This document shows, one piece after another, positions 8,574-55,360 of a stretch of DNA of 64,000 bases. The DNA is from Parcubacteria group bacterium Gr01-1014_30 (GTDB lineage Bacteria > Patescibacteriota > Minisyncoccia > Minisyncoccales > 2-12-FULL-40-12). Both the position numbers and the translations under genes were made by a program. Where the stretch lies: contig VMFS01000001.1 in NCBI GenBank assembly GCA_007376185.1, positions 94,206-158,205 on the forward strand, read 5' to 3'. A model generated the notes under the pieces. That model ran no database searches. It was given only the letters and a program-made list of their open reading frames with translations, and was not told the DNA's origin. The number at the start of each line of letters is the position of its first letter. Position 1 is the stretch's first letter.

Positions 8574-10481
8574 TCAGCGGCTTAAAGCTTTCTCCATAAA
8601 GGTGCGCCATATAGGCCCGGCCAGCACTATGCCGGGCTCTTGGCGCATTGGCGTGTTGTCGTTGTTACCAACCCAAACGCCGGCAACAATAGAGGGCGTG
8701 TAGCCCAAAATCCAGCCGTCTTTGAAATCCTGGGTCGTGCCTGTTTTGGCGGATACCTTATAGTTTTCAAAGTACATCACTGACCTTGGGCCGAAAATCG
8801 GCGTCCTTGCTTCGTTGTCAGACAGTATGTCTGAAATAAGCTCCGTTGGCTCTCTTTCTATAACCCTTTTGGGAGTTCTCTGGTTTTGTTCAATAACGTT
8901 GCCTTGCGAGTCCTCAATTCTCAAGACGGCCAAAGGAGCCACCTGAAGGCCTGCGGTGGCAAAAACACCATAGGCTGAAACCATGTCTAACAGACGCACC
9001 TCGCCTCCTCCAAGAACAATCGACAAGCCGTAAAAAGAAGGTGGCTGAGTCAGGGTGGTTATGCCGAAGTTTTGAGCCATATTAATAGAGTCCTGTAAGC
9101 CAGCGAGATCTGCCAGAACCTTTACTGAAGGCACGTTTAAGGATTGAGCCAAACCTTGCCTTAGAGTTACAGGCCCCCTGAAGCGACCGTCGTAGTTTTT
9201 GGGGATATATGGTTTTCCGCCCCAAAGGCCGAAGTTAGTTTCTTCATCAACCACCTCGTAATCTGCGTCGTAGCCTTTTTGAAAAGCCGTAACGTAGACA
9301 AAGGGCTTGAAAGCCGAGCCCGGCTGGCGAGACCTTAAAACCACGTTTGGGTAGGGTTCAAACAAGCAGTTTTTGCCGGGGACGCATCCTTTGGGCCAAG
9401 GGTCGCCAAACCAATCCTTTGAGCCGACCATTGCCAAGACCTCTCCGCTGTTTGGGTCAGTTGCCACGATAGCCGCGTTGTAGGCGCCCAAAGACGTGTT
9501 TCTTTGGGCTGCATTAGCAACAGCTTTCTCTGCGGCTTCTTGCAATTCCCAGTCCAAGGAAGTATAAACTTTCAAACCTTTCTCTCTCAAGAAGGCCTCC
9601 CCGTATTTTTCTTCCAGCCAGTCTTTTACCCACAGAGTAAAGTGCGGAGCTTTTATGGGTTGAGACGCTTTAGCAAACTGCAGTTCTTCAGCTTTTGCTT
9701 GCTGTGCTTGGTTTTGCGTCAAGAATCCGACCCTTGCCATTCTGGCCAAAACCACGTTTTTCTTGGACACTAGCTCTTGAAGGTTTTGGCCGTAAGGCGA
9801 AAGAAAACTCGGCGCCTGTATCAAAGCGGCCAGCGTTGCGGCTTCAGACAGTGTGATTTCCCTGACCGATTTTTGAAAATAAGTTTGGCTGGCTGCCTCC
9901 ATGCCGTAGGCGTTCTGCCCCAGCGGAATCTGGTTGAGATACCATTCCAAAATTTGGTCCTTTGAATAACGCCTCTCCATCTCCAGGGTTAAAATAACCT
10001 CTCTAATTTTTCTTTCAGGCGTCTTTTCCAATGTTAGAAACGTTGAGCGAATAAGCTGCTGGGAAATTGTGGAGCCCCCGTATACAGGGCTGCCCAGGCG
10101 AATGTTAATGGGTATTGATCTTAGGATGCCTCTAAAATCAAGGCCAAAGTGCTTGTAAAAGTTAATATCCTCTGCGGCAATGACGGCTTCAATTAAGTGT
10201 TTGGGCATCTCAGACAGAGAAGCCCAGGTTCTTTTTTCTTCACCATATATTTCGTACAAAAGCACTTCGCCTGAGCGGTCGTAGATTTTCGTGGACTGGG
10301 CAAGGGTTCTTTCTGTAAATTTTTCTGGCCTGGGCAAGCTTCTGCCGTAGTAAACGAACAAAGCCAAAACCAAGACGGTAAAGAGTAGGAGTCCGGTTCT
10401 TGAAATTTTCAAAACAAAAACCGCCTTTTTATTCATTCTTTTTTGCGAGTAAGTTTTCCGGTAATATTTTCTTTCGGGCAT
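8574..10481 (-). CDS. mrcA: class A penicillin-binding protein (bifunctional transglycosylase/transpeptidase, PBP1A)
   Basis: N-terminal TM helix. EDINFYKHFG is the GT51 motif. SAFKP (SxxK) and KTGTT are transpeptidase motifs. Confidence 0.85.
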   Translation of the reverse strand: MPERKYYRKTYSQKRMNKKAVFVLKISRTGLLLFTVLVLALFVYYGRSLPRPEKFTERTLAQSTKIYDRSGEVLLYEIYGEEKRTWASLSEMPKHLIEAVIAAEDINFYKHFGLDFRGILRSIPINIRLGSPVYGGSTISQQLIRSTFLTLEKTPERKIREVILTLEMERRYSKDQILEWYLNQIPLGQNAYGMEAASQTYFQKSVREITLSEAATLAALIQAPSFLSPYGQNLQELVSKKNVVLARMARVGFLTQNQAQQAKAEELQFAKASQPIKAPHFTLWVKDWLEEKYGEAFLREKGLKVYTSLDWELQEAAEKAVANAAQRNTSLGAYNAAIVATDPNSGEVLAMVGSKDWFGDPWPKGCVPGKNCLFEPYPNVVLRSRQPGSAFKPFVYVTAFQKGYDADYEVVDEETNFGLWGGKPYIPKNYDGRFRGPVTLRQGLAQSLNVPSVKVLADLAGLQDSINMAQNFGITTLTQPPSFYGLSIVLGGGEVRLLDMVSAYGVFATAGLQVAPLAVLRIEDSQGNVIEQNQRTPKRVIEREPTELISDILSDNEARTPIFGPRSVMYFENYKVSAKTGTTQDFKDGWILGYTPSIVAGVWVGNNDNTPMRQEPGIVLAGPIWRTFMEKALSR

Positions 10482-11613: not shown

Positions 11614-12524
11614 ACGTCTTTATTGTGATTATGAGTATTTTTTAATTTGTTTTTGAATAGCAAAATTGCGGTACCCGAAACCCCTGCCAGCAAAAAGGCG
11701 ATGAGAAAAACCGGAAGCCTCTCTTTGGTTTCTTGGTTAGAGTATGGCAACTCGAAGGGTTGCGCAGCTTGGGCCAAGCCGGTTTCCGGTAAATCTTTCT
11801 CATTTTCTATTTTAGGAGGTTTCAGGGCAGGGTCAACCCAGGCCAAACCTTGGCTTTTAATGTCTTGCAGAGTTTTTTCGCCAATCCCCTGCACTTTGGC
11901 CAAGTCGTCCAAGGAGTAAAAAGGTCTAACGTCTATTATTCTTTGGGCTAAAACTTGACCCACGCCGGCCAACTTTTGAAGCTCCTCGGCAGATGCGGCG
12001 TTGATATCTACTCTAAGGGGCGCTGGCTCCTTAGATGGCTGGACGGGTTTCGTTGCCGTAGAGGAGGAGTTGGGTTGAGGCGGCGCGGGAGGGGGCGTGT
12101 TTTGTGTGGACTCCAAGGTTGTTTCTTGATTTGCAGTTGTGAAGGTTTCCTGTTCTGTTGCGGTTTGTGTTTGTGGTTTTGGTGGTGGAGGCGGCGGCGG
12201 AGGAGGTTCGGAAGGAGGTTGCATATTAGGATCTGCCCAAGCTAAGCCTTGTGCTTTAATATCTGCCAGCCGCTTTTCCCCTATACCATTTACCTTGATA
12301 AGCTCGTCTATCGAGTAAAACGGCCTCGCTTCTATTATCCTGTGAGCTATGACAGGACCAACCCATTTTATTTTCTGCAACTCTTCAGACGAAGCGGTGT
12401 TAATGTCTACTTTTTCCTCCTCCGCCGCCCCGATCCAAGCCAAGAGAAGCAAGAAAAGGCAAACAATGACTACTTTTGACCCCCACACCAAAGCGTTGGC
12501 GTGGGGGCTTGACAAAGTTCTCAT
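11610..12524 (-). CDS. comEA: competence protein ComEA with duplicated helix-hairpin-helix DNA-binding domain
   Basis: Two copies of VDINxASxEELQKxxGVGxVxAxRII. A poly-Pro linker separates them and there is a TM helix. Confidence 0.8.
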   Translation of the reverse strand: MRTLSSPHANALVWGSKVVIVCLFLLLLAWIGAAEEEKVDINTASSEELQKIKWVGPVIAHRIIEARPFYSIDELIKVNGIGEKRLADIKAQGLAWADPNMQPPSEPPPPPPPPPKPQTQTATEQETFTTANQETTLESTQNTPPPAPPQPNSSSTATKPVQPSKEPAPLRVDINAASAEELQKLAGVGQVLAQRIIDVRPFYSLDDLAKVQGIGEKTLQDIKSQGLAWVDPALKPPKIENEKDLPETGLAQAAQPFELPYSNQETKERLPVFLIAFLLAGVSGTAILLFKNKLKNTHNHNKDV

Positions 12525-12757
12525 AATATATTAGAATAGGAATGTTATACAGCCCCAAAGCTGAGGGCCGGGAGTTTTTCTTAGAATGGACGGTTTGGCT
12601 GAGGCGAAACCCATCCTCAAGAAAGTTCTAAACTTTGTGTTCCTAAAACCAAGTGGCCCTCAGCTTTGGGGCTTCCCCGTATATCATCTTTCGGTCGCCT
12701 GCGGCGATAATTGCGTTTTTCAAGAACGCACCGAAAGTTGTATTACGGGGCTGATTT

Positions 12758-14062
12758 TTATTCTCCGGTCACGCGCTCCACTTCTTCAATCGTCGTTATC
12801 CCCTCTAACACCTTTATCAGCCCGTCTTGATGCATCAGAACCATTCCTTTTTTGATTGCCAAATCTCTCATGTCAACAATGGAGGGCGACTTTAAAATAA
12901 ACCTTTCCATTTGGTCGTCAACCAAAAACGTTTCGTAAATGCCTATTCTGCCCCGGTATCCCGTGTTGTTGCACTCTGAACATCCCTTAGCCTGCGGAAT
13001 TTTAAAGTACTTGGCAAAAAACGCTTTTGGCAATATTTCTTTTTTAACTTTGGCCAACCCTTTCTTTATTTTTTCAAGATTCTCTTTTGAAGGAGACACA
13101 AACTCGGCACACTTTTGACACACTTTTCTGGGCAGGCGTTGGGCTACAACCATGTTGATGGAGGGCGCTATGGAAACTGGCCTTACCCCAAGGTCAATCA
13201 GCCGCGCCACTGCACCCGAGGAATCGTTGGTGTGCAAGGTTGAGAAAACCAGATGCCCGGTCAAGGCAGCTTGCAGGGCGATTTCAGCTGTTTCTTTGTC
13301 CCTAATTTCGCCCACCAAAATAACGTCAGGGTCCTGACGCATTATGGATCTTAAGCCGTTGGCAAAAGTGTAGCCCCTTGACGGGTCAACTTGGGTTTGG
13401 GAAAGGCCTTCCAAGTGATACTCAACAGGGTCTTCAATGGTAATGATTTTAATTTCTGGTTTGTTTATGCGTTTCAAAACCGCGTAGAGCGTGGTCGTTT
13501 TGCCAGAGCCCGTGGGCCCGGTAACCACTATCATGCCGTTTGGTTTTTTAATTTCTTTTTTGAAAATTTCCTCAATGTCTTTTCTCAACCCCAGCGCTTC
13601 TATTTCAATCAAGTTTTTGGGATTGAGCAAGCGCAAGACCGCAGTTTCTCCTCTTTCTGAAGGCAGGGTAGATATTCTTATTTCTATTGCAGTGTTTTCC
13701 ACCAAGATTGTGAAACGCCCATCTTGCGGCCTGGTGGTTATGTTCAGTTTGATGCCAGAGAGCAGTTTGACGCGGGAAAGAAGCATGTTGTAAGTTTTTA
13801 AATCAAAAAGCTTGGCGTCTTGCAGAATTCCGTCAATTCTTAAGCGCAGTTTTGCTTTTTCCTCCTCGGGCTCCAAGTGCACGTCAGACGCCCCCAAGTA
13901 AAGGGCTCCTGCCAGCACGGTTTCTAACAGCTCTGTTGCCGAGGCGCCGATGAGCTTTTCAATTTCTTTGCCGAGGCCGGCGATATTTTCGACTGTTTTC
14001 TGAATCTGGGCGGCTCTTTTGGAAGAAATTTCCACCTCTCCGGTAATTTTTTCCCGTTCCAT
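12758..14062 (-). CDS. type II/IV secretion ATPase of the GspE/PilB family (short paralogue lacking the N1 domain)
   Basis: Walker A VVTGPTGSGKTTTLYAVL. A C-terminal tetracysteine CQKC...CSEC is present. Confidence 0.8.
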   Translation of the reverse strand: MEREKITGEVEISSKRAAQIQKTVENIAGLGKEIEKLIGASATELLETVLAGALYLGASDVHLEPEEEKAKLRLRIDGILQDAKLFDLKTYNMLLSRVKLLSGIKLNITTRPQDGRFTILVENTAIEIRISTLPSERGETAVLRLLNPKNLIEIEALGLRKDIEEIFKKEIKKPNGMIVVTGPTGSGKTTTLYAVLKRINKPEIKIITIEDPVEYHLEGLSQTQVDPSRGYTFANGLRSIMRQDPDVILVGEIRDKETAEIALQAALTGHLVFSTLHTNDSSGAVARLIDLGVRPVSIAPSINMVVAQRLPRKVCQKCAEFVSPSKENLEKIKKGLAKVKKEILPKAFFAKYFKIPQAKGCSECNNTGYRGRIGIYETFLVDDQMERFILKSPSIVDMRDLAIKKGMVLMHQDGLIKVLEGITTIEEVERVTGE

Positions 14063-29279: not shown

Positions 29280-29368
29280 GGAGGAGTGCGTGAGTGGTTC
29301 AAACGAGCGGCTTGCTAAGCCGTGGCGGCCTAATAAGTCGCCCGTGGGTTCAAATCCCACCTCCTCCG
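29280..29368 (+). tRNA. tRNA-Ser (anticodon GCT), type II with long variable arm
   Basis: Acceptor GGAGGAG/CTCCTCC. Anticodon stem-loop GCGGC-TTGCTAA-GCCGT. Long variable arm. T arm GTGGG-TTCAAAT-CCCAC. Confidence 0.75.
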
Positions 29369-29414
29369 CACTTCGGAAGCTCAGTGCAAGCATTTGTTTT
29401 AAGAGTATAAATTA

Positions 29415-29576
29415 ATGAGTATGTGGTACACGTATGTGCTTCTTTGCGATCAGAAAACTTTTTATGTAGGAGTTACAGATAACCCTGTAGCGAGGATAGG
29501 TCAACATAGAAATAGAAAACCACTTTTTACTAAAAAGTTTTTCCCACCTCCTCCGCTTTCTGGAGGGTTCGCCTAA
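29415..29576 (+). pseudogene. truncated GIY-YIG nuclease gene remnant running into tRNA-Ser(TGA)
   Basis: Translation MSMWYTYVLLCDQKTFYVGVTDNPVARIGQHRN is the GIY-YIG N-terminal motif. Compare the intact paralogue at 48518-48775. The ORF stops after 54 aa inside the tRNA. Confidence 0.6.
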
Positions 29577-29646
29577 TGGTATGGCACCGCTCTTGAAAAG
29601 CGGCGGACGAAAGTCCTTAGAGGTTCGAGTCCTCTACCCTCCGCCA
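29562..29646 (+). tRNA. tRNA-Ser (anticodon TGA) with encoded CCA
   Basis: Acceptor GGAGGGT/ACCCTCC. Anticodon stem-loop CCGCT-CTTGAAA-AGCGG. Long variable arm. Ends GCCA. Confidence 0.75.
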
Positions 29647-40738: not shown

Positions 40739-41404
40739 TTATTCTCTTGCTACAGTTATTCCCCAAACCTCTTTGGCGCCGCTTTCTTTTAAAACACGGG
40801 CGGCTTCTTCCATGGTTGAGCCGGTTGTGAAAACGTCGTCAACCAGAAGAACAGTTTTCTTTTTTATTGCCTCGGCATTTTCGCAAAAGAAAACGTCCTT
40901 GACGTTTTGAATTCTTTCCTGTTTTGATAACTCTACTTGCGGCATAGTTTCTTTTGTTTTTAGCAAAACGTTATTTACTAGAGGCACTTTCAATTGTTTG
41001 GACAATTCTCTGCCGATTTCTTCTGCTTGGTTGAAACCTCGCTGTCTTAACCGTTTTCGAGTCAAAGGAATTGGTATGATTAGGATTTGCCCCCCACCGC
41101 TTTTGGCCAAAAGCGGTGGGGGGTATTCGGTTTGTTCAAACTGATGTATAATTAAACCGGCCAGAGTTGAAGCCAGATCCTTGACAAACGGGTTGTACTT
41201 AAATTGCGCGATTAGTTTTTTTACTATAAAATTATTGTAAGGCGAGGCGGAGATTAGCAATTTCAGGTTTTTGGATTTATAATGAGAGCGGGGGAGAAAT
41301 TCAATCATTGCAAAACAATCCTCGCACAAATAGCTTCTTTCTTTCTGACAATTTTGGCAGAACTTTGGAAAGAATAAATCCGCAAGAAAGGTTTTGAGCG
41401 ACAT
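40739..41404 (-). CDS. comFC: ComF-family protein (ComFC, phosphoribosyltransferase-like)
   Basis: N-terminal CxxC...CxxC zinc ribbon. C-terminal PRTase motif LLVDDVFTTGST. Confidence 0.8.
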   Translation of the reverse strand: MSLKTFLADLFFPKFCQNCQKERSYLCEDCFAMIEFLPRSHYKSKNLKLLISASPYNNFIVKKLIAQFKYNPFVKDLASTLAGLIIHQFEQTEYPPPLLAKSGGGQILIIPIPLTRKRLRQRGFNQAEEIGRELSKQLKVPLVNNVLLKTKETMPQVELSKQERIQNVKDVFFCENAEAIKKKTVLLVDDVFTTGSTMEEAARVLKESGAKEVWGITVARE

Positions 41405-47194: not shown

Positions 47195-47280
47195 TTACGA
47201 AATTACGAATTTTCTACGAAAGTACGAAAATTCTTAATTTTTTTTCGTATTTTCGTATTTTTTTCGTAATTTCGTAAGGC
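47195..47280. repeat. imperfect 86-bp palindrome made of 'tacgaaa' heptads; same sequence as the inverted repeats flanking the GxxExxY gene at 61.6 kb
   Basis: Left arm TTACGAAATTACGAA..TACGAAAGTACGAAAA; right arm is its reverse complement. Fills the pilT-pilC intergenic space exactly. Confidence 0.7.
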
Positions 47281-47281
47281 T

Positions 47282-48487
47282 ATGAAATTCAACTACCAAG
47301 CCCGAACAAAGACTGGAGAAATTCAATCAGGCCAGGTAGAAGCGGTTTCTCGGGATTCGGCTCTTAATCTTTTGAGGTCGCACAAGCTTTTCATTACCGC
47401 CTTGGAAGAGGTCGCCGCCCCTTTTTACGCGAGACGTCTAAAATTCTTTGACAGGATTCCGGCCAAAGAAATCGTTATTTTCTCCAGTCAGCTGGCCGTT
47501 ATGTTTAAATCGGAAATATCTCCGGTTGAAGTTTTGGGCACGCTTGCCAAGCAAGTTAAAAATGAACAGCTCCGAGAAAAAATTCTTGACATGGTTGAAA
47601 AAGTGGAAGGAGGAAGCCCTCTCTCAAATACGTTCGCTCTTTATCCTGAGGTTTTCAGCCCATTTTACGTTAATATGGTTAAAAGCGGGGAAGCAACGGG
47701 AAAGCTGTCAGAAATCTTCTCATACCTGGCCGATTATCTGGAGAAGGAATACGAGTTTAACAGAAAGGTTAAGGGAACGATGATTTACCCCGTTTTTCTT
47801 TTGGCCGTTTTCCTGGCCGTAATAGGCATAATAATATTTTTCGTGGTGCCCCAGCTCTCTCAGTTTTTAGCCGAAGCGGAGATAGAGCTTTCTCTTCTCA
47901 CCAGGTTTCTGCTCGGCGCTTCTAAGTTTTTAAGACAATGGTGGTTTCTTTTACTTTTACTTCCTTTGGGGCTGGCCGTTTTTCTACGTTTTTATTTAAA
48001 AACCAAAGAAGGCAAGGCCTTTTTTGATAAAATGATGCTCAAGGTGCCTGTCTTGGGAGGTTTCTTAAAAAGTATTTATCTTTCTCGCGTATCTCTTAAC
48101 CTTTCAACCTTGATATCAGGGGGTTTGCCCATTGTGCAGGCGCTGCAGGTTACCAGCAACGTTGTCGGCAACGAAGTTTACAAATCAATTATTACGGAAA
48201 CCGCGAAAGAGGTGAGGACTGGCGAGTCTATAAGCGCGACCTTGGCAAAGTATCCTGAAGAGTTTTTCGCCCTCTTCGTTCAGATGGTGGCAGTGGGTGA
48301 AAAAACCGGCCGGCTAGATTCTTCTTTAAGAAGTACGGTTGATTTTTACCAAAAGGAGGTTGAGCGGGAACTAGATAACTTTATGAGAGTTTTGGAGCCG
48401 GCTTTGATTGTTTTTTTCGGCCTTTTGGTTGGCGCTTTGATGACTGCGGTGATTATTCCAGTTTACCAGATAATAACCAGTTTTTGA
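47282..48487 (+). CDS. pilC: type IV pilus inner-membrane platform protein PilC (GspF family)
   Basis: Duplicated T2SF domain layout with three TM segments. 401 aa. Confidence 0.8.
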   Translation: MKFNYQARTKTGEIQSGQVEAVSRDSALNLLRSHKLFITALEEVAAPFYARRLKFFDRIPAKEIVIFSSQLAVMFKSEISPVEVLGTLAKQVKNEQLREKILDMVEKVEGGSPLSNTFALYPEVFSPFYVNMVKSGEATGKLSEIFSYLADYLEKEYEFNRKVKGTMIYPVFLLAVFLAVIGIIIFFVVPQLSQFLAEAEIELSLLTRFLLGASKFLRQWWFLLLLLPLGLAVFLRFYLKTKEGKAFFDKMMLKVPVLGGFLKSIYLSRVSLNLSTLISGGLPIVQALQVTSNVVGNEVYKSIITETAKEVRTGESISATLAKYPEEFFALFVQMVAVGEKTGRLDSSLRSTVDFYQKEVERELDNFMRVLEPALIVFFGLLVGALMTAVIIPVYQIITSF

Positions 48488-48915
48488 CCCCGCACCTTTT
48501 CAGGACTTATTAACTTAATGTACTGGGTCTATATCATAAAAAGCGAGCTCCACAGTAAGTTATACATTGGCCGTACCAATGACTTATCTAAGAGATTAAA
48601 AGATCATAACTCAGGAAGATCCCCATCTACAAAAAAATACATACCATGGAAACCAGTTTATATTGAAGGCTACGCCGTTGAACAAGACGCTAAAGACCGA
48701 GAAGAAAAAATGAAATACTTTGGTAAGGTTTATAGCCAACTTAAAATAAGGATCAGGCGTAGCCTTCGGTCCTGAAAAGGTGCGGGGTTTTGATTGACAA
48801 AGGAGTTTGCTGTATAATAATAGAAGTAGCAGGAAATATACAAACCCCGCACCTTTTTTGTGCTCCTTTCAGTAATTTTGATGCCGTAGGCATCAAGCAC
48901 ACAAAAGGTGCGGGG
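48488..48915. repeat. four copies of a 13-bp palindromic unit CCCCGCACCTTTT in alternating orientation
   Basis: Copies at 48488-48500 (+), 48775-48787 (-), 48845-48857 (+) and 48903-48915 (-). The first pair brackets the GIY-YIG gene and the second a 45-bp hairpin. Confidence 0.7.
48518..48775 (+). CDS. stand-alone GIY-YIG nuclease-domain protein (YhbQ/UPF0213-like)
   Basis: MYWVYIIKSELHSKLYIGRTNDLSKRLKDHN is the GIY-YIG motif. Flanked by inverted CCCCGCACCTTTT repeats. Confidence 0.75.
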   Translation: MYWVYIIKSELHSKLYIGRTNDLSKRLKDHNSGRSPSTKKYIPWKPVYIEGYAVEQDAKDREEKMKYFGKVYSQLKIRIRRSLRS

Positions 48916-49379: not shown

Positions 49380-49410
49380 AATACTGATAATCGGTTATTT
49401 CAGTTTTGGA

Positions 49411-49438
49411 GCCATTCTGTTAATATTAACAGAATGGC
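49411..49438 (+). terminator. perfect 28-bp palindrome followed by T-run after the pilin gene
   Basis: GCCATTCTGTTAATATTAACAGAATGGC then TTATTTTTTATTT. Overlaps the pilD start, so probably a partial terminator. Confidence 0.5.
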
Positions 49439-50252
49439 TTATTTTTTATTTCATTTTTTTGTTTTTATCTTAGGTCTGGTTGTCGGCTCATTTTTAAACT
49501 CGGTTATCTATCGTTTAGAGTCAAGAGGCAGCTTTTTGAAAGGCCGTTCTTTTTGCCCGCATTGTAAACACATTTTAACTTGGCAGGATTTAGTTCCTTT
49601 TGTCAGTTTTTTCGTTCTTGGGGGCAAATGTCGCTACTGCCAGCAAAAAATCTCCTGGCAATACCCAGCAGTAGAAGTATCAACTGCGCTGCTGTTTCTG
49701 CTAATTTTCAATCAACAATTTATCTCCACTTTATCTCAATTTACTACTACTTTATATCTATTTCTTGTTTCCTCCTTCTTGATAGTGATTTTCGTCTATG
49801 ATCTGAAACACTATATTATTCCCGATAAAATAGTTTACCCCGCCATCGTCATCGCCTTTTTATACCAGCTGTCTGTTATAATTTGGAATTTGCCTGCCCC
49901 GTATCATTCCGAAGGAATTGGTGCGGGGTTTAGGATTTGGAGTTTAGGATTTGGAATTTTGCCTTCTTTGTTCTTTTTAGGGATTATTTTATTGTCTCAA
50001 GGCCGCTTGATGGGCATGGGCGACTTTAAGTTAGCCATATTGATGGGCTTGATTCTTGGCTGGCCCAACATTTCGGTGGCTCTATTTTTAGCTTTCCTCA
50101 TCGGTGCTATAATGGGGGCAGGATTGATACTTTCTGGCAGGAAGTCCTTAAAATCAGAGGTGCCTTTCGGCCCTTTTCTGGTTGGCGGCACATTTTTGGC
50201 CTTTTTCTGGGGAGATAAAATAATTAATTGGTATTTTAATTTCCTATTATGA
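49434..50252 (+). CDS. pilD: prepilin peptidase PilD (A24 family)
   Basis: Cytoplasmic zinc tetracysteine CPHC...CRYC. Catalytic loops GMGDFKL. Confidence 0.85.
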   Translation: MAYFLFHFFVFILGLVVGSFLNSVIYRLESRGSFLKGRSFCPHCKHILTWQDLVPFVSFFVLGGKCRYCQQKISWQYPAVEVSTALLFLLIFNQQFISTLSQFTTTLYLFLVSSFLIVIFVYDLKHYIIPDKIVYPAIVIAFLYQLSVIIWNLPAPYHSEGIGAGFRIWSLGFGILPSLFFLGIILLSQGRLMGMGDFKLAILMGLILGWPNISVALFLAFLIGAIMGAGLILSGRKSLKSEVPFGPFLVGGTFLAFFWGDKIINWYFNFLL

Positions 50253-50761
50253 GTCAAAAAGGATTTACCCTTGTAGAACTTGTTGTCGTCACCGGCATAA
50301 TTATTTTTTTGTCCGCGATGCTTTTAGTCAACTGGCGACCGGCGGCCGAGGAGTTTGCCCTTCAGCGTTCAGCTCACAAGCTGGCTCAAGACATCAGAAG
50401 AGCCAGCGAGATGGCAATGTCGGCAAGGGAATTTCAAGGGAGCGTGCCTCAAGGCGGCTACGGGTTTCACGTTCGTTTTCCCTCAGAAACAGAATCTTAT
50501 GTGCTGTATGCGGACACCAACGGCAACCAAAGATACGACGCAGCCGACGGCATAGTGGAAACGGTTTACTTAGAACAGGAAGTTATTGTGCACAGCGTTT
50601 CCAAGAACAACTTAAGCATAAATTTCAAGCCGCCCAACCCAACGGTTAGTATTACCCCCATTTCAACCGTGGCAGACATAACTCTTGCCCTTAAATCAGA
50701 CCCCACGAAAATAAGATCAGTCATAATTCATATCTCGGGGTTAATAGAAATAGAGGAATAA
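50249..50761 (+). CDS. minor pilin / pseudopilin
   Basis: MSQKG|FTLVELVVV prepilin N-terminus. Confidence 0.7.
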   Translation: MSQKGFTLVELVVVTGIIIFLSAMLLVNWRPAAEEFALQRSAHKLAQDIRRASEMAMSAREFQGSVPQGGYGFHVRFPSETESYVLYADTNGNQRYDAADGIVETVYLEQEVIVHSVSKNNLSINFKPPNPTVSITPISTVADITLALKSDPTKIRSVIIHISGLIEIEE

Positions 50762-51265
50762 ATGCTTAAATGCTTAAGTGTTAAAGTGAAAGGTGGGGGG
50801 TTCACGCTGTTGGAGATGATGTTTGCCGTGTTTGTGGTTGCCGTAGGATTGACGGGGGTAATTTCTTTAATACATAGGGCGTCTTTTGGCGCGCAAATAG
50901 CCGCCTCGCGCTTAACAGCAGCTTACTTGGCGCAAGAAGGCGTTGAGATAGTCAGAAACATACGCGACTCAAACTGGCTGGCGCAAAGAGACGACCCCGC
51001 CATTGCTTGGAACCAAAACCTTGGGAATGGGGACTGGGAAGCCGATTATGACGATTTCACTTTAACCCCTTTTCAAAACCGCAACCTGAAAATTAACGGC
51101 GGTTTTTACAACTATGCCTTCGGTACAGACACCAAGTTCAAAAGAAAAATTACCATTACCCAAACAAGCGCGGGTACTTTGGCGGTTGCGGTTGATGTTG
51201 CCTGGCAGGAAGGGGGAAGGTCTTGGTCGGTTTTTGTTCACGAGAATTTATATAACTGGAGATAA
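50762..51265 (+). CDS. minor pilin / pseudopilin
   Basis: GG|FTLLEMMFAVFVVAVGL prepilin-like N-terminus. The true start may be an internal alternative codon. Confidence 0.6.
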   Translation: MLKCLSVKVKGGGFTLLEMMFAVFVVAVGLTGVISLIHRASFGAQIAASRLTAAYLAQEGVEIVRNIRDSNWLAQRDDPAIAWNQNLGNGDWEADYDDFTLTPFQNRNLKINGGFYNYAFGTDTKFKRKITITQTSAGTLAVAVDVAWQEGGRSWSVFVHENLYNWR

Positions 51266-52183: not shown

Positions 52184-55328
<3,145 letters not shown>

Positions 55329-55329
<1 letters not shown>

Positions 55330-55360
55330 CCCCCACACCAAATTTTGGTGTGGGGGTTAA
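55329..55360. terminator. bidirectional hairpin terminator between the rodA/ftsW-family gene and atpC
   Basis: AACCCCCACACC-aaaatt-GGTGTGGGGGTT, a perfect 12-bp stem flanked by A/T. Confidence 0.65.

Follow-up and report, generated by a model that had tools for sequence, protein, structure and literature searches.

The closest described counterparts of the locus analyzed here are the Ssn proteins, single-domain GIY-YIG proteins of ~94 amino acids (CDD cd10448) whose target is a hairpin repeat; they bind it and cut it only as single-stranded DNA (ssDNA), just 5' of the repeat, and a 2025 paper presents them as the first site-specific nucleases acting on ssDNA alone (Chenal et al. 2025, Nat Commun, PMC11893778). 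The repeat, NTS (CGTCATTCCCGCGMAVGCGGGAATCYRG), has been generalised as the motif SRM, and the genes are typically arranged as NTS-ssnA-NTS, a layout that the authors likened to that of an insertion sequence (IS), with mobility only hypothesised; SsnA does not bind RNA, the Ssn/NTS system modulates natural transformation in Neisseria meningitidis, and bacteria of the candidate phyla radiation (CPR) go unmentioned (PMC11893778). The locus described here lies in a stretch of 64,000 nucleotides from Parcubacteria group bacterium Gr01-1014_30 (contig VMFS01000001.1, positions 94,206 to 158,205), which we call the window and whose own numbering is used throughout. Between the pilC and pilin genes of a type IV pilus locus it contains a unit of ~300 bp in which an 85-amino-acid (aa) GIY-YIG nuclease gene is enclosed by an inverted repeat, followed by a gene-less hairpin unit with the same termini. 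These are probably two members of a CPR-wide family of hairpin-bounded mini-elements, the one a selfish GIY-YIG unit and the other a non-autonomous derivative, and we favor a mobile element because the same pairing of protein and repeat recurs at unrelated sites in many CPR genomes. A literature search for GIY-YIG proteins together with terminal inverted repeats, MITEs (miniature transposable elements that end in inverted repeats), CPR or transposases found no description of this family, the Ssn paper alone being relevant.

The initial annotation of this locus reported a 13-mer, CCCCGCACCTTTT, in four copies of alternating orientation, the first two bracketing the 85-aa open reading frame (ORF) and the other two a segment without a gene, and each of these observations is borne out. 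The copies lie at 48488 (+), 48775 (-), 48845 (+) and 48903 (-), at this locus only, and the 64-kb window holds no further copy even with one mismatch allowed; 0.14 copies would be expected there by chance, and four were reached in 0 of 100 shuffles. Three independent assemblies carry an identical sequence, and the locus is therefore not an assembly artefact. Copies 1 and 2 really belong to a larger inverted repeat, perfect over 20 nt (48487-48506 and 48769-48788, ACCCCGCACCTTTTCAGGAC and GTCCTGAAAAGGTGCGGGGT), of which they form the outer part and whose arms stand 262 nt apart and enclose the ORF at 48518-48775. The full unit, 48488-48787, consists of the GIY-YIG gene and the enclosing repeat and nothing else, and it is placed between the pilC stop codon and the pilin promoter with TTTTGA on both sides. 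When the 302-nt unit is folded (z = -5.5) the outer stem and an inner stem within the ORF are both predicted, the inner one in the minimum-free-energy and centroid folds alike. The parts of the locus, in order, are these:

48482-48487 (+), flanking direct repeat TTTTGA, left copy; contains the pilC stop codon TGA (48485-48487) and equals 48788-48793
48487-48506 (+), terminal inverted repeat, left arm ACCCCGCACCTTTTCAGGAC; the outer CCCCGCACC is the family core, and the inner part is variable and co-varies with the right arm
48518-48775 (+), gene for the 85-aa single-domain Ssn-like GIY-YIG nuclease; matches Pfam, lacks a promoter of its own and starts 30 nt past the pilC stop
48665-48676 (+), inner stem within the ORF, 5' arm GAAGGCTACGCC; codons E50-A53, conserved
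48756-48767 (+), inner stem, 3' arm GGCGTAGCCTTC; region of codons R80-R84, adjoining the right terminal arm
48769-48788 (+), terminal inverted repeat, right arm GTCCTGAAAAGGTGCGGGGT; overlaps the final codons and the stop codon of the ORF
48788-48793 (+), flanking direct repeat TTTTGA, right copy; deletion of 48488-48793 leaves the pilC stop followed by TTGACA, as in the empty relative L101
48794-48821 (+), pilin promoter-like site (TTGACA ... TATAAT/AATAAT); same layout in L101, L099 and L098, where the GIY-YIG gene is absent
48845-48915 (no strand), gene-less 71-bp hairpin unit with the same 13-nt termini; z = -8.7, absent from the pilin leaders of L098, L099 and L101
48917-48925 (+), conserved pilin-leader motif AAGGTCGAG; host sequence, marking the insertion point of the 71-bp unit

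(Numbers with L designate the loci used for comparison.)

The ORF matches the Pfam GIY-YIG family PF01541 over residues 1-66 as one domain (E = 7e-16, 58.7 bits against a cut-off of 22.6), and an alignment of 23 homologues leaves Y5, Y16, G18, R26, H30, R61 and E62 invariant, to which catalytic roles may be assigned through alignment with UPF0213, Slx1 and I-TevI. An AlphaFold2 model (pLDDT 92.9; strands at 2-9, 15-20 and 44-52, helices at 23-32 and 55-84) has the beta-beta-alpha-beta-alpha core of GIY-YIG proteins followed by a long basic C-terminal helix; its Foldseek matches are UPF0213, Slx1, I-TevI and UvrC-N, with UPF0213 BH0048, the Slx1 nuclease domain (TM 0.65, root-mean-square deviation 2.2 Å) and I-TevI at the top among solved structures and 1zg2 and 1ywl among the best of these. 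The ratio of nonsynonymous to synonymous substitution rates between copies of the element is 0.09-0.16, and the ORF is therefore a gene maintained by purifying selection; decayed copies with stops or frameshifts also occur (L027, L109, L117). The 85-aa protein is a catalytic domain alone, with no additional DNA-binding domain, which makes classical homing-endonuclease behavior unlikely. It scores 21.7 against TIGR01453, below the cut-off of 56, and NCBIfam and PADLOC gave weak sub-threshold matches of GIY-YIG type only and no assignment to a defence system. No recognised transposase (DDE, HUH, or serine or tyrosine recombinase) is annotated in the loci with gene calls, and the GIY-YIG nuclease is the sole ORF of the unit.

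At 85 aa the protein falls within the size range of Ssn (single domain, <150 aa), and the likeness extends to the layout: a single-domain GIY-YIG gene of ~90 aa with its own inverted, hairpin-forming repeats on both sides, extra gene-less repeat copies elsewhere in the genome, and protein and repeat that co-evolve. A stem base (Y)CCCGC is common to both, as is a bottom-strand flank GTCA(A/T), which reads TGTCAA-CCCCGCACC here and CGTCAT-CCCCGCG in Azospirillum, and these motifs may be homologous. The family profile gives the Ssn proteins of Neisseria, Azospirillum and Rhizobium 47.7-57.6 bits, against 41.6 for Bacillus subtilis YazA (UPF0213) and 35.3 for the best PDB sequence, and the best family member in comparison with Ssn is that of L039 (58.5 bits). 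Identity to the Ssn proteins is 31-35%, whereas they share 55-59% among themselves. Aligned with the N. gonorrhoeae ssnA homologue, which served as query in place of the paper's N. meningitidis CAX49033.1 and whose ORF was used without its first residues, the 85-aa protein is 31.4% identical over 70 residues (37.4 bits; profile score 47.7 bits), a coverage of 78% of the 90 aa read or ~74% of a 94-aa protein, and it lies outside the limits set for Ssn (blastp E < 1e-10 and at least 75% query cover against Neisseria SsnA; PMC11893778), clearly related though the two are. The motif SRM (HGTCWY..YYVSBRH..WNVSBRG..RNCYNB) has no match in the window and is matched in one of the 85 family loci (L077), whereas the control loci recovered from N. 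gonorrhoeae (NTS-flanked), Azospirillum (in the sufB-sufC interval, with SRM pairs to the left and right) and Rhizobium gave 4-7 matches each.

The architecture differs as well. The family has one long-range stem around the gene (or around 4-130 nt), in place of the two self-contained 28-nt hairpins of Ssn, and its stems are longer (13-22 bp), its copy number low and its CPR hosts outside the coverage of the Ssn paper; direct repeats, empty sites and insertions in tRNA genes and at promoters are further differences. Given the low identity, the blastp result, the lack of SRM and these differences in architecture, we file the family as an apparent sister or variant of the Ssn/SRM system and not as a canonical member. 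Two of the control loci have peculiarities of their own: on the Azospirillum lipoferum 4B plasmid AZO_p3 (L136, 254918-256315) the Ssn homologue and its SRM pairs lie inside the sufB-sufC operon and look like an insertion, and the N. gonorrhoeae 2022NG-0032 'plasmid' (L102, 2.17 Mb) is a PLSDB record of a whole chromosome labelled as plasmid, in which the ssnA homologue apparently lacks an in-frame ATG start, with an apparent 2-nt difference relative to an upstream ATG.

Relatives of the 85-aa protein at 40-75% identity are mostly from Patescibacteria, with a few in Omnitrophota, WOR-3, Phycisphaerae and others; at least 439 of them were obtained when one genome per species was scanned, and an exhaustive profile search gave 2,808 clusters at 50% identity (E <= 1e-10). 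In IMG/VR viral contigs there are no family members, just partial N-terminal matches to GIY-YIG proteins of giant viruses and phages. In four other genomes the homologues with 59-75% identity follow uvrB, precede rpoB, follow an acylphosphatase gene or lie among hypothetical genes, and all are flanked by (A)CCCCGCACCTTTT... and ...AAAAGGTGCGGGG(T), with an inner part that is specific to each locus yet complementary. A flanking inverted repeat (score at least 12) is present at 59 of 85 loci examined, with arms of 12-30 nt as compared with the perfect 20-nt arms in the window. The inverted repeat is present in 23 of the 26 homologues that reach 55% identity, and 21 of the 26 carry the CCCGCACC core; at 45-55% identity (48 in the bin) that core is found in 4 of the 29 that bear an inverted repeat, and the rest have CCCCCACACC, GCCCCTCAC, ATCCCGCCC or other variants. 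The repeat core tracks the protein subfamily, the outer core being conserved and subfamily-specific.

Co-variation within the two helices was assessed in an alignment of 25 elements against shuffled and slid controls, none of which came near the values for the outer helix. This helix is 99.6% paired; in 11 of its 20 pairs both partners have changed, with as many as five types of pair at a position. G-U cells are nearly absent from it, so the outer palindrome is maintained at the DNA level, on both strands. The nine outermost pairs (the CCCGCACC core) are invariant across the 25 elements, a pattern that fits sequence-specific recognition of the stem base and a purely structural need further inward. 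The inner helix in the ORF (codons 50-53 with 80-83) is 75% paired and has five pairs with compensatory changes (CGCC/GGCG, TTTT/AAAA, CGCA/TGCG, TCTT/AAGA); since ~10% of its cells are G-U it is strand-specific.

Copies 3 and 4 of the 13-mer close the 71-nt hairpin at 48845-48915, with 45 nt between the 13-mers and 20-nt arms that are 95% complementary; folded as DNA it reaches -27 kcal/mol. The unit lies in the 5' leader of the pilin gene, with the promoter on one side and on the other AAGGTCGAG, a motif conserved in the pilin leaders of L098, L099 and L101, and the unit is best read as a non-autonomous (MITE- or REPIN-like) derivative that would have inserted in that leader. It is not a deletion product of the neighboring GIY-YIG unit, because its inner arm (TTGTGCT) is of a different sublineage and resembles those of L022 and L034. 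Gene-less units of 30-145 bp with perfect 11-23-nt arms occur at 14 further loci, and one 135-bp unit in at least three contexts. Between the two pairs of 13-mers the initial annotation had noted a promoter-like site, and one is indeed present (TTGACA at 48794, 16 nt, AATAAT, with 11 of 12 matches; alternatively TTGATT, 17 nt, TATAAT); the implied link between cassette and pilus is unsupported, since conservation of the site in relatives without the element identifies it as, in all likelihood, the native pilin promoter, host sequence outside the element. Screened with gathering and E-value thresholds, the locus has no Rfam family, and a match to CRISPR-DR33 inside the hairpin (48865-48900) is sub-threshold (28.2 bits against a gathering score of 39, E = 5e-4), in single copy and probably due to chance. 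We note that AAAGGTCGRG directly abuts the right ends of elements in L020, L021 and L029, where the next gene is not pilin. Checked as a possible general leader motif, AAGGTCGRG is no commoner than expected by chance across 1.3 Mb of loci, although four elements have it at their ends, and motifs of the AAGGTCGAG type in that position may reflect a preferred target or a right end that reaches further.

Evidence of insertion comes from the flanks of the elements and from comparisons of occupied and unoccupied sites in genomes that are not near-identical (the window with L101, L126 with L122 and with L004, L013 with L008). Abutting direct repeats of at least 4 nt are found at 29 of 59 elements, compared with 3.6% under a null in which left and right flanks from different loci are paired. 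The commonest is TTGA, followed downstream by CA, CG or CT, which reads as a -35-like TTGAC box lying, in most loci inspected, 15-18 nt from a -10-like hexamer; in full units of this TTGAC type the gene points to the box in 13 of 13 cases (13:0). In the closest PilC relatives (L098, L099, L101; 67-73% PilC identity) the pilin gene follows pilC and the GIY-YIG gene is missing from the interval, and L099 has a diverged gene-less hairpin exactly at the post-pilC site. With 48488-48793 and 48845-48915 taken out, the window keeps a spacer of 98 nt, which can be aligned with the one of 94 nt in L101 (TTGACA, TATAAT, AAGGTCGAG, ATG); the comparison of pilC-pilin spacers proposed in the initial annotation thus shows, in L101, a relative that lacks both units.

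Other loci show the same kind of change. In L126 a 30-bp hairpin (TCCCGCACCTTTT-TGTG-AAAAGGTGCGGGA) with a TAAA duplication lies in the 5' leader of the GIY-YIG unit itself, where L122 is uninterrupted; in L013 a 70-bp unit with a TTATTTT duplication lies upstream of ychF, where L008, 99% identical downstream, is without it. The elements of L122 and L004/L126 are 88-89% identical in nucleotide sequence within unrelated flanks, and L126 and L004 are orthologous loci in which the full and the gene-less unit come in opposite order. Members of the GCCCCTCAC subfamily adjoin intact tRNA genes (tRNA-Ala and tRNA-Val) at the 5' end, their right terminus being the first 2-4 nt of the tRNA, with a 7-11-nt duplicate of the tRNA start on the left; others adjoin tRNA 3' ends and make tandem arrays with repeated 4-nt spacers, and a single metagenome-assembled genome carries two diverged paralogues. 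The proposal in the initial annotation of a family of miniature nuclease-carrying mobile or homing cassettes thus survives as to mobility, for which the unrelated contexts, direct repeats, empty sites, the L126/L122 comparison and multi-copy gene-less units all speak; the homing part does not, as a DNA-binding domain, an intron, an intein and a single conserved target gene are all absent. A DnaA-box-like nonamer (TTATCCACA/TGTGGATAA) was also seen directly abutting element ends in L054, L056, L078 and L117, and it is present in the empty spacer of L101.

How such a unit would move can be set out in outline, by analogy with the Ssn nucleases as relatives of the 85-aa protein. The nuclease presumably binds the hairpin and cuts it as ssDNA, and thereby drives mobility. 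When the DNA becomes single-stranded, in replication, repair or DNA uptake, the two arms would pair into a stem; the nuclease would read the stem base (Y)CCCGC(A)CC and cut a few nucleotides outside the stem, and the cut would lead to copying or movement of the unit to new sites with short direct repeats left behind. Preferred sites would be TTGA(C) beside promoters, positions 4-5 nt after G-runs, and tRNA gene ends, and gene-less units would use the nuclease in trans. The pattern of targets (4-5 nt past a G-run or an existing right end; TTGA(C); tRNA acceptor ends) agrees with an enzyme that gauges a short distance from the base of a stem. A bolder form of this proposal, to which we give only tentative credence, is that the 300-bp unit is an autonomous transposable element and the 85-aa GIY-YIG protein a new class of transposase, acting on ssDNA hairpin ends, inserting 4-5 nt from G-runs, at TTGA(C) promoter boxes and at tRNA acceptor ends, and moving the 30-145-bp units in trans, with the Ssn/NTS systems of Neisseria, Wolbachia and others as domesticated or expanded relatives.

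Several observations weigh against a family of mobile elements. The direct repeats vary in length (3-9 nt, modal 4), which is unusual for a classical transposase, and they are missing from between 15 of 59 and about half of the elements; the TTGA and TTGAC flanks could instead be part of the recognised motif, as with CGTCA of NTS, and not a duplication. No near-identical copies were found inside one genome, so that recent transposition has not been caught, and the nearest relative of the window copy is merely 75% identical. Copy number is low, with two units of this core and 2-3 of sister cores per 64 kb. PilC identity to the relatives that have empty sites is 67-73%, so that loss of the element is possible in place of gain, and the uniform orientation to TTGAC (13:0) could come from selection for read-through expression. 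The activity of the nuclease on the hairpin is itself predicted.

The same evidence can be held against four other explanations. That the repeats are regulatory or recognition sites of the host, and that an Ssn-like nuclease and its hairpins form a domesticated system that marks or restricts ssDNA, for example during type IV pilus uptake as with SsnA/NTS in Neisseria, is in our judgment unlikely, even though Ssn/NTS affects natural transformation in N. meningitidis, the window copy lies in a type IV pilus locus, hairpin units also occur after pilC in L098 and L099 and upstream of a pilB-like gene in L115, and the protein is under strong purifying selection. Copies number a few per 64 kb and not hundreds, and direct repeats, empty sites, nested insertion, decayed copies and tRNA-gene insertions are signatures of a selfish element; moreover, most family members lie away from pilus genes. 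Domestication and mobility are, however, mutually compatible. We give somewhat less weight again to MITE ends moved in trans by an unrelated transposase, with the GIY-YIG gene as passenger cargo. We know of no GIY-YIG transposase, nor did the literature search find one, and gene-less units with the same ends exist and at some loci outnumber full units. It is difficult to see a passenger, however, in a gene whose subfamily changes together with the repeat core, whose homologues across several phyla keep the repeat in 59 of 85 cases, whose end is overlapped by the right arm and whose coding sequence has the internal stem built into it; related Ssn proteins bind exactly such flanking hairpins, and a full-length IS with these ends was not seen in 1.3 Mb of loci, in a search that was not exhaustive.

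A role at the RNA level, with the arms stabilising, regulating or (through RNase III) processing the GIY-YIG mRNA and the 71-nt hairpin acting as a structure of the pilin mRNA leader, seems to us improbable. Transcription from the pilin promoter would include the 71-nt hairpin, which lies downstream of it, and the inner helix with its G-U pairs is strand-specific, but the outer helix, nearly without G-U cells, is symmetrical at the level of DNA, units occupy many positions that are not leaders, some inside tRNA genes, relatives express pilin without the hairpin, no Rfam family matches, and SsnA does not bind RNA. A secondary effect of the hairpin on the pilin mRNA is possible. The chance is very slight that the 13-mer is an intrinsic-terminator consensus of this genome, the finding that the initial annotation had named as fatal to its proposal: the stems are G+C-rich and intergenic, as a terminator would be, but there are only four copies in 64 kb with ~60 genes, neither hairpin has a T tract after it, 262 nt separate the arms of the first pair, and the sole terminator-like site that a scan identified in the region (49409-49440, after the pilin gene) is of unrelated sequence.

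Among other known systems, a family of mobile hairpin-bounded units resembles, in its layout, the repetitive extragenic palindromic (REP) sequences and REPINs with their RAYT proteins (IS200/IS605-like, Y1): there too a small gene lies between inverted palindromic repeats, gene-less hairpin doublets occur in intergenic DNA, recognition of an ssDNA hairpin is expected, and protein and repeat co-evolve. The enzyme here is GIY-YIG and not HUH/Y1, the element is half the size, and direct repeats are frequent, whereas IS200/IS605 elements make none. Bacterial MITEs such as the Correia elements of Neisseria share the length range (30-145 bp), inverted repeats at the termini, what look like short duplications of the target, an intergenic location adjacent to promoters and the potential to alter transcripts, but they are derived from, and moved by, a conventional IS transposase, whereas the sole gene associated with the present family is an 85-aa nuclease. 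GIY-YIG homing endonucleases (I-TevI, Seg) have the same catalytic fold and spread selfishly; their C-terminal DNA-binding domain (proteins of >200 aa), one conserved target gene and spread by recombinational repair are absent here, and they have no terminal inverted repeats. UPF0213 (YhbQ-YazA) and Slx1, the latter a structure-specific nuclease for branched DNA, are the best matches of solved structure, but the B. subtilis yazA locus (L138) lies between housekeeping genes without an SRM match, and its profile score is below that of Ssn. An integron attC cassette was rejected, as the repeats flank the ORF on both sides and no integrase is annotated in the loci with gene calls.

If the mobile-element interpretation holds, the CPR family would provide the first comparative evidence that units of nuclease and hairpin insert as mobile DNA, and the mobility hypothesised for Ssn would gain occupied and unoccupied sites, duplications at the flanks, insertions that are nested or in tandem, derivatives without a gene, and target preferences. 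Should the 85-aa nuclease be the mobilising enzyme, it would represent a new transposition chemistry and, at ~300 bp, the smallest autonomous element known. Tools for work with ssDNA might also draw new specificities of hairpin and nuclease from the family, and for the biology of CPR bacteria it would mean a widespread selfish element in supposedly streamlined genomes, located at promoters, in mRNA leaders (here that of pilin) and at tRNA genes.

Four other features of the window deserve mention:

55326-55360 (no strand), sister-core mini hairpin of 35 nt, CCCCCACACCAAA-T-TTTGGTGTGGGGG between two copies of TTAA, overlapping the stop codon of ftsW; other GIY-YIG subfamilies have CCCCCACACC as their terminal core
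12480-12507 (no strand), imperfect mini hairpin CCCCCACACCAAAGCGTTGGCGTGGGGG, with TTTTGA on its left and CTTGACA on its right
41090-41123 (no strand), perfect 34-nt palindrome CCCCCCACCGCTTTTGG/CCAAAAGCGGTGGGGGG inside a ComF-like coding sequence (40739-41404, minus strand)
29370-29556 (+), remnant of a different GIY-YIG cassette with a truncated ORF (MSMWYTYVLLCDQKTFYVGVTDNPVARIGQHRNRKPLFTKKFF...), at the 3' end of tRNA-Ser(gct)

The truncated GIY-YIG ORF lies between tRNA-Ser(gct) and tRNA-Ser(tga) (29355-29646) and has on each side a copy of a 15-nt direct repeat, TCCCACCTCCTCCGC, taken from the tRNA 3' end (29355-29369 and 29542-29556); it looks like what is left of a cassette of another subfamily that had presumably integrated at the tRNA end. 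The second small nuclease cassette (GxxExxY) that the initial annotation placed in the pilus locus is not seen: the only G..E..Y motifs there are in the ORFs at 50249-50761 and 50762-51265, which are minor pilins beginning with the prepilin motifs GFTLVELVVV and GFTLLEMMFAV. The palindrome at 41090-41123 encodes PPPLLAKSGGG in a variable linker that is just ~3 residues shorter in homologues, a comparison that gave no demonstration of a hairpin inserted in frame, and it is possibly related to the family. The hairpin at 55326-55360 lies where gene orientations converge and the cumulative GC skew turns (~55-56 kb). After the hairpin at 12480-12507 there is a promoter-like TTGACA-17-TAGAAT and then a 123-nt unit (12551-12673) closed by perfect 19-nt arms, AGCCCCAAAGCTGAGGGCC; the latter has no Rfam match and may represent a small RNA that is not annotated or a further family of repeats. 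The pilT-pilC spacer is filled by an 83-nt palindromic array of TACGAAA-like heptamers (47195-47277; 36-nt arms, 83% complementary). Finally, in L042 a tRNA-like 5' end (GGGGCGGTTAGCTCAGTTGGTA) that follows an element is broken by a 39-nt hairpin, CCCGCCC...GGGCGGG (10272-10360), and is not called by ARAGORN, and in the same locus (13012-13118) a tRNA-Pro gene at 13028-13099 is bracketed by CCCCTCAC and GTGAGGGG.

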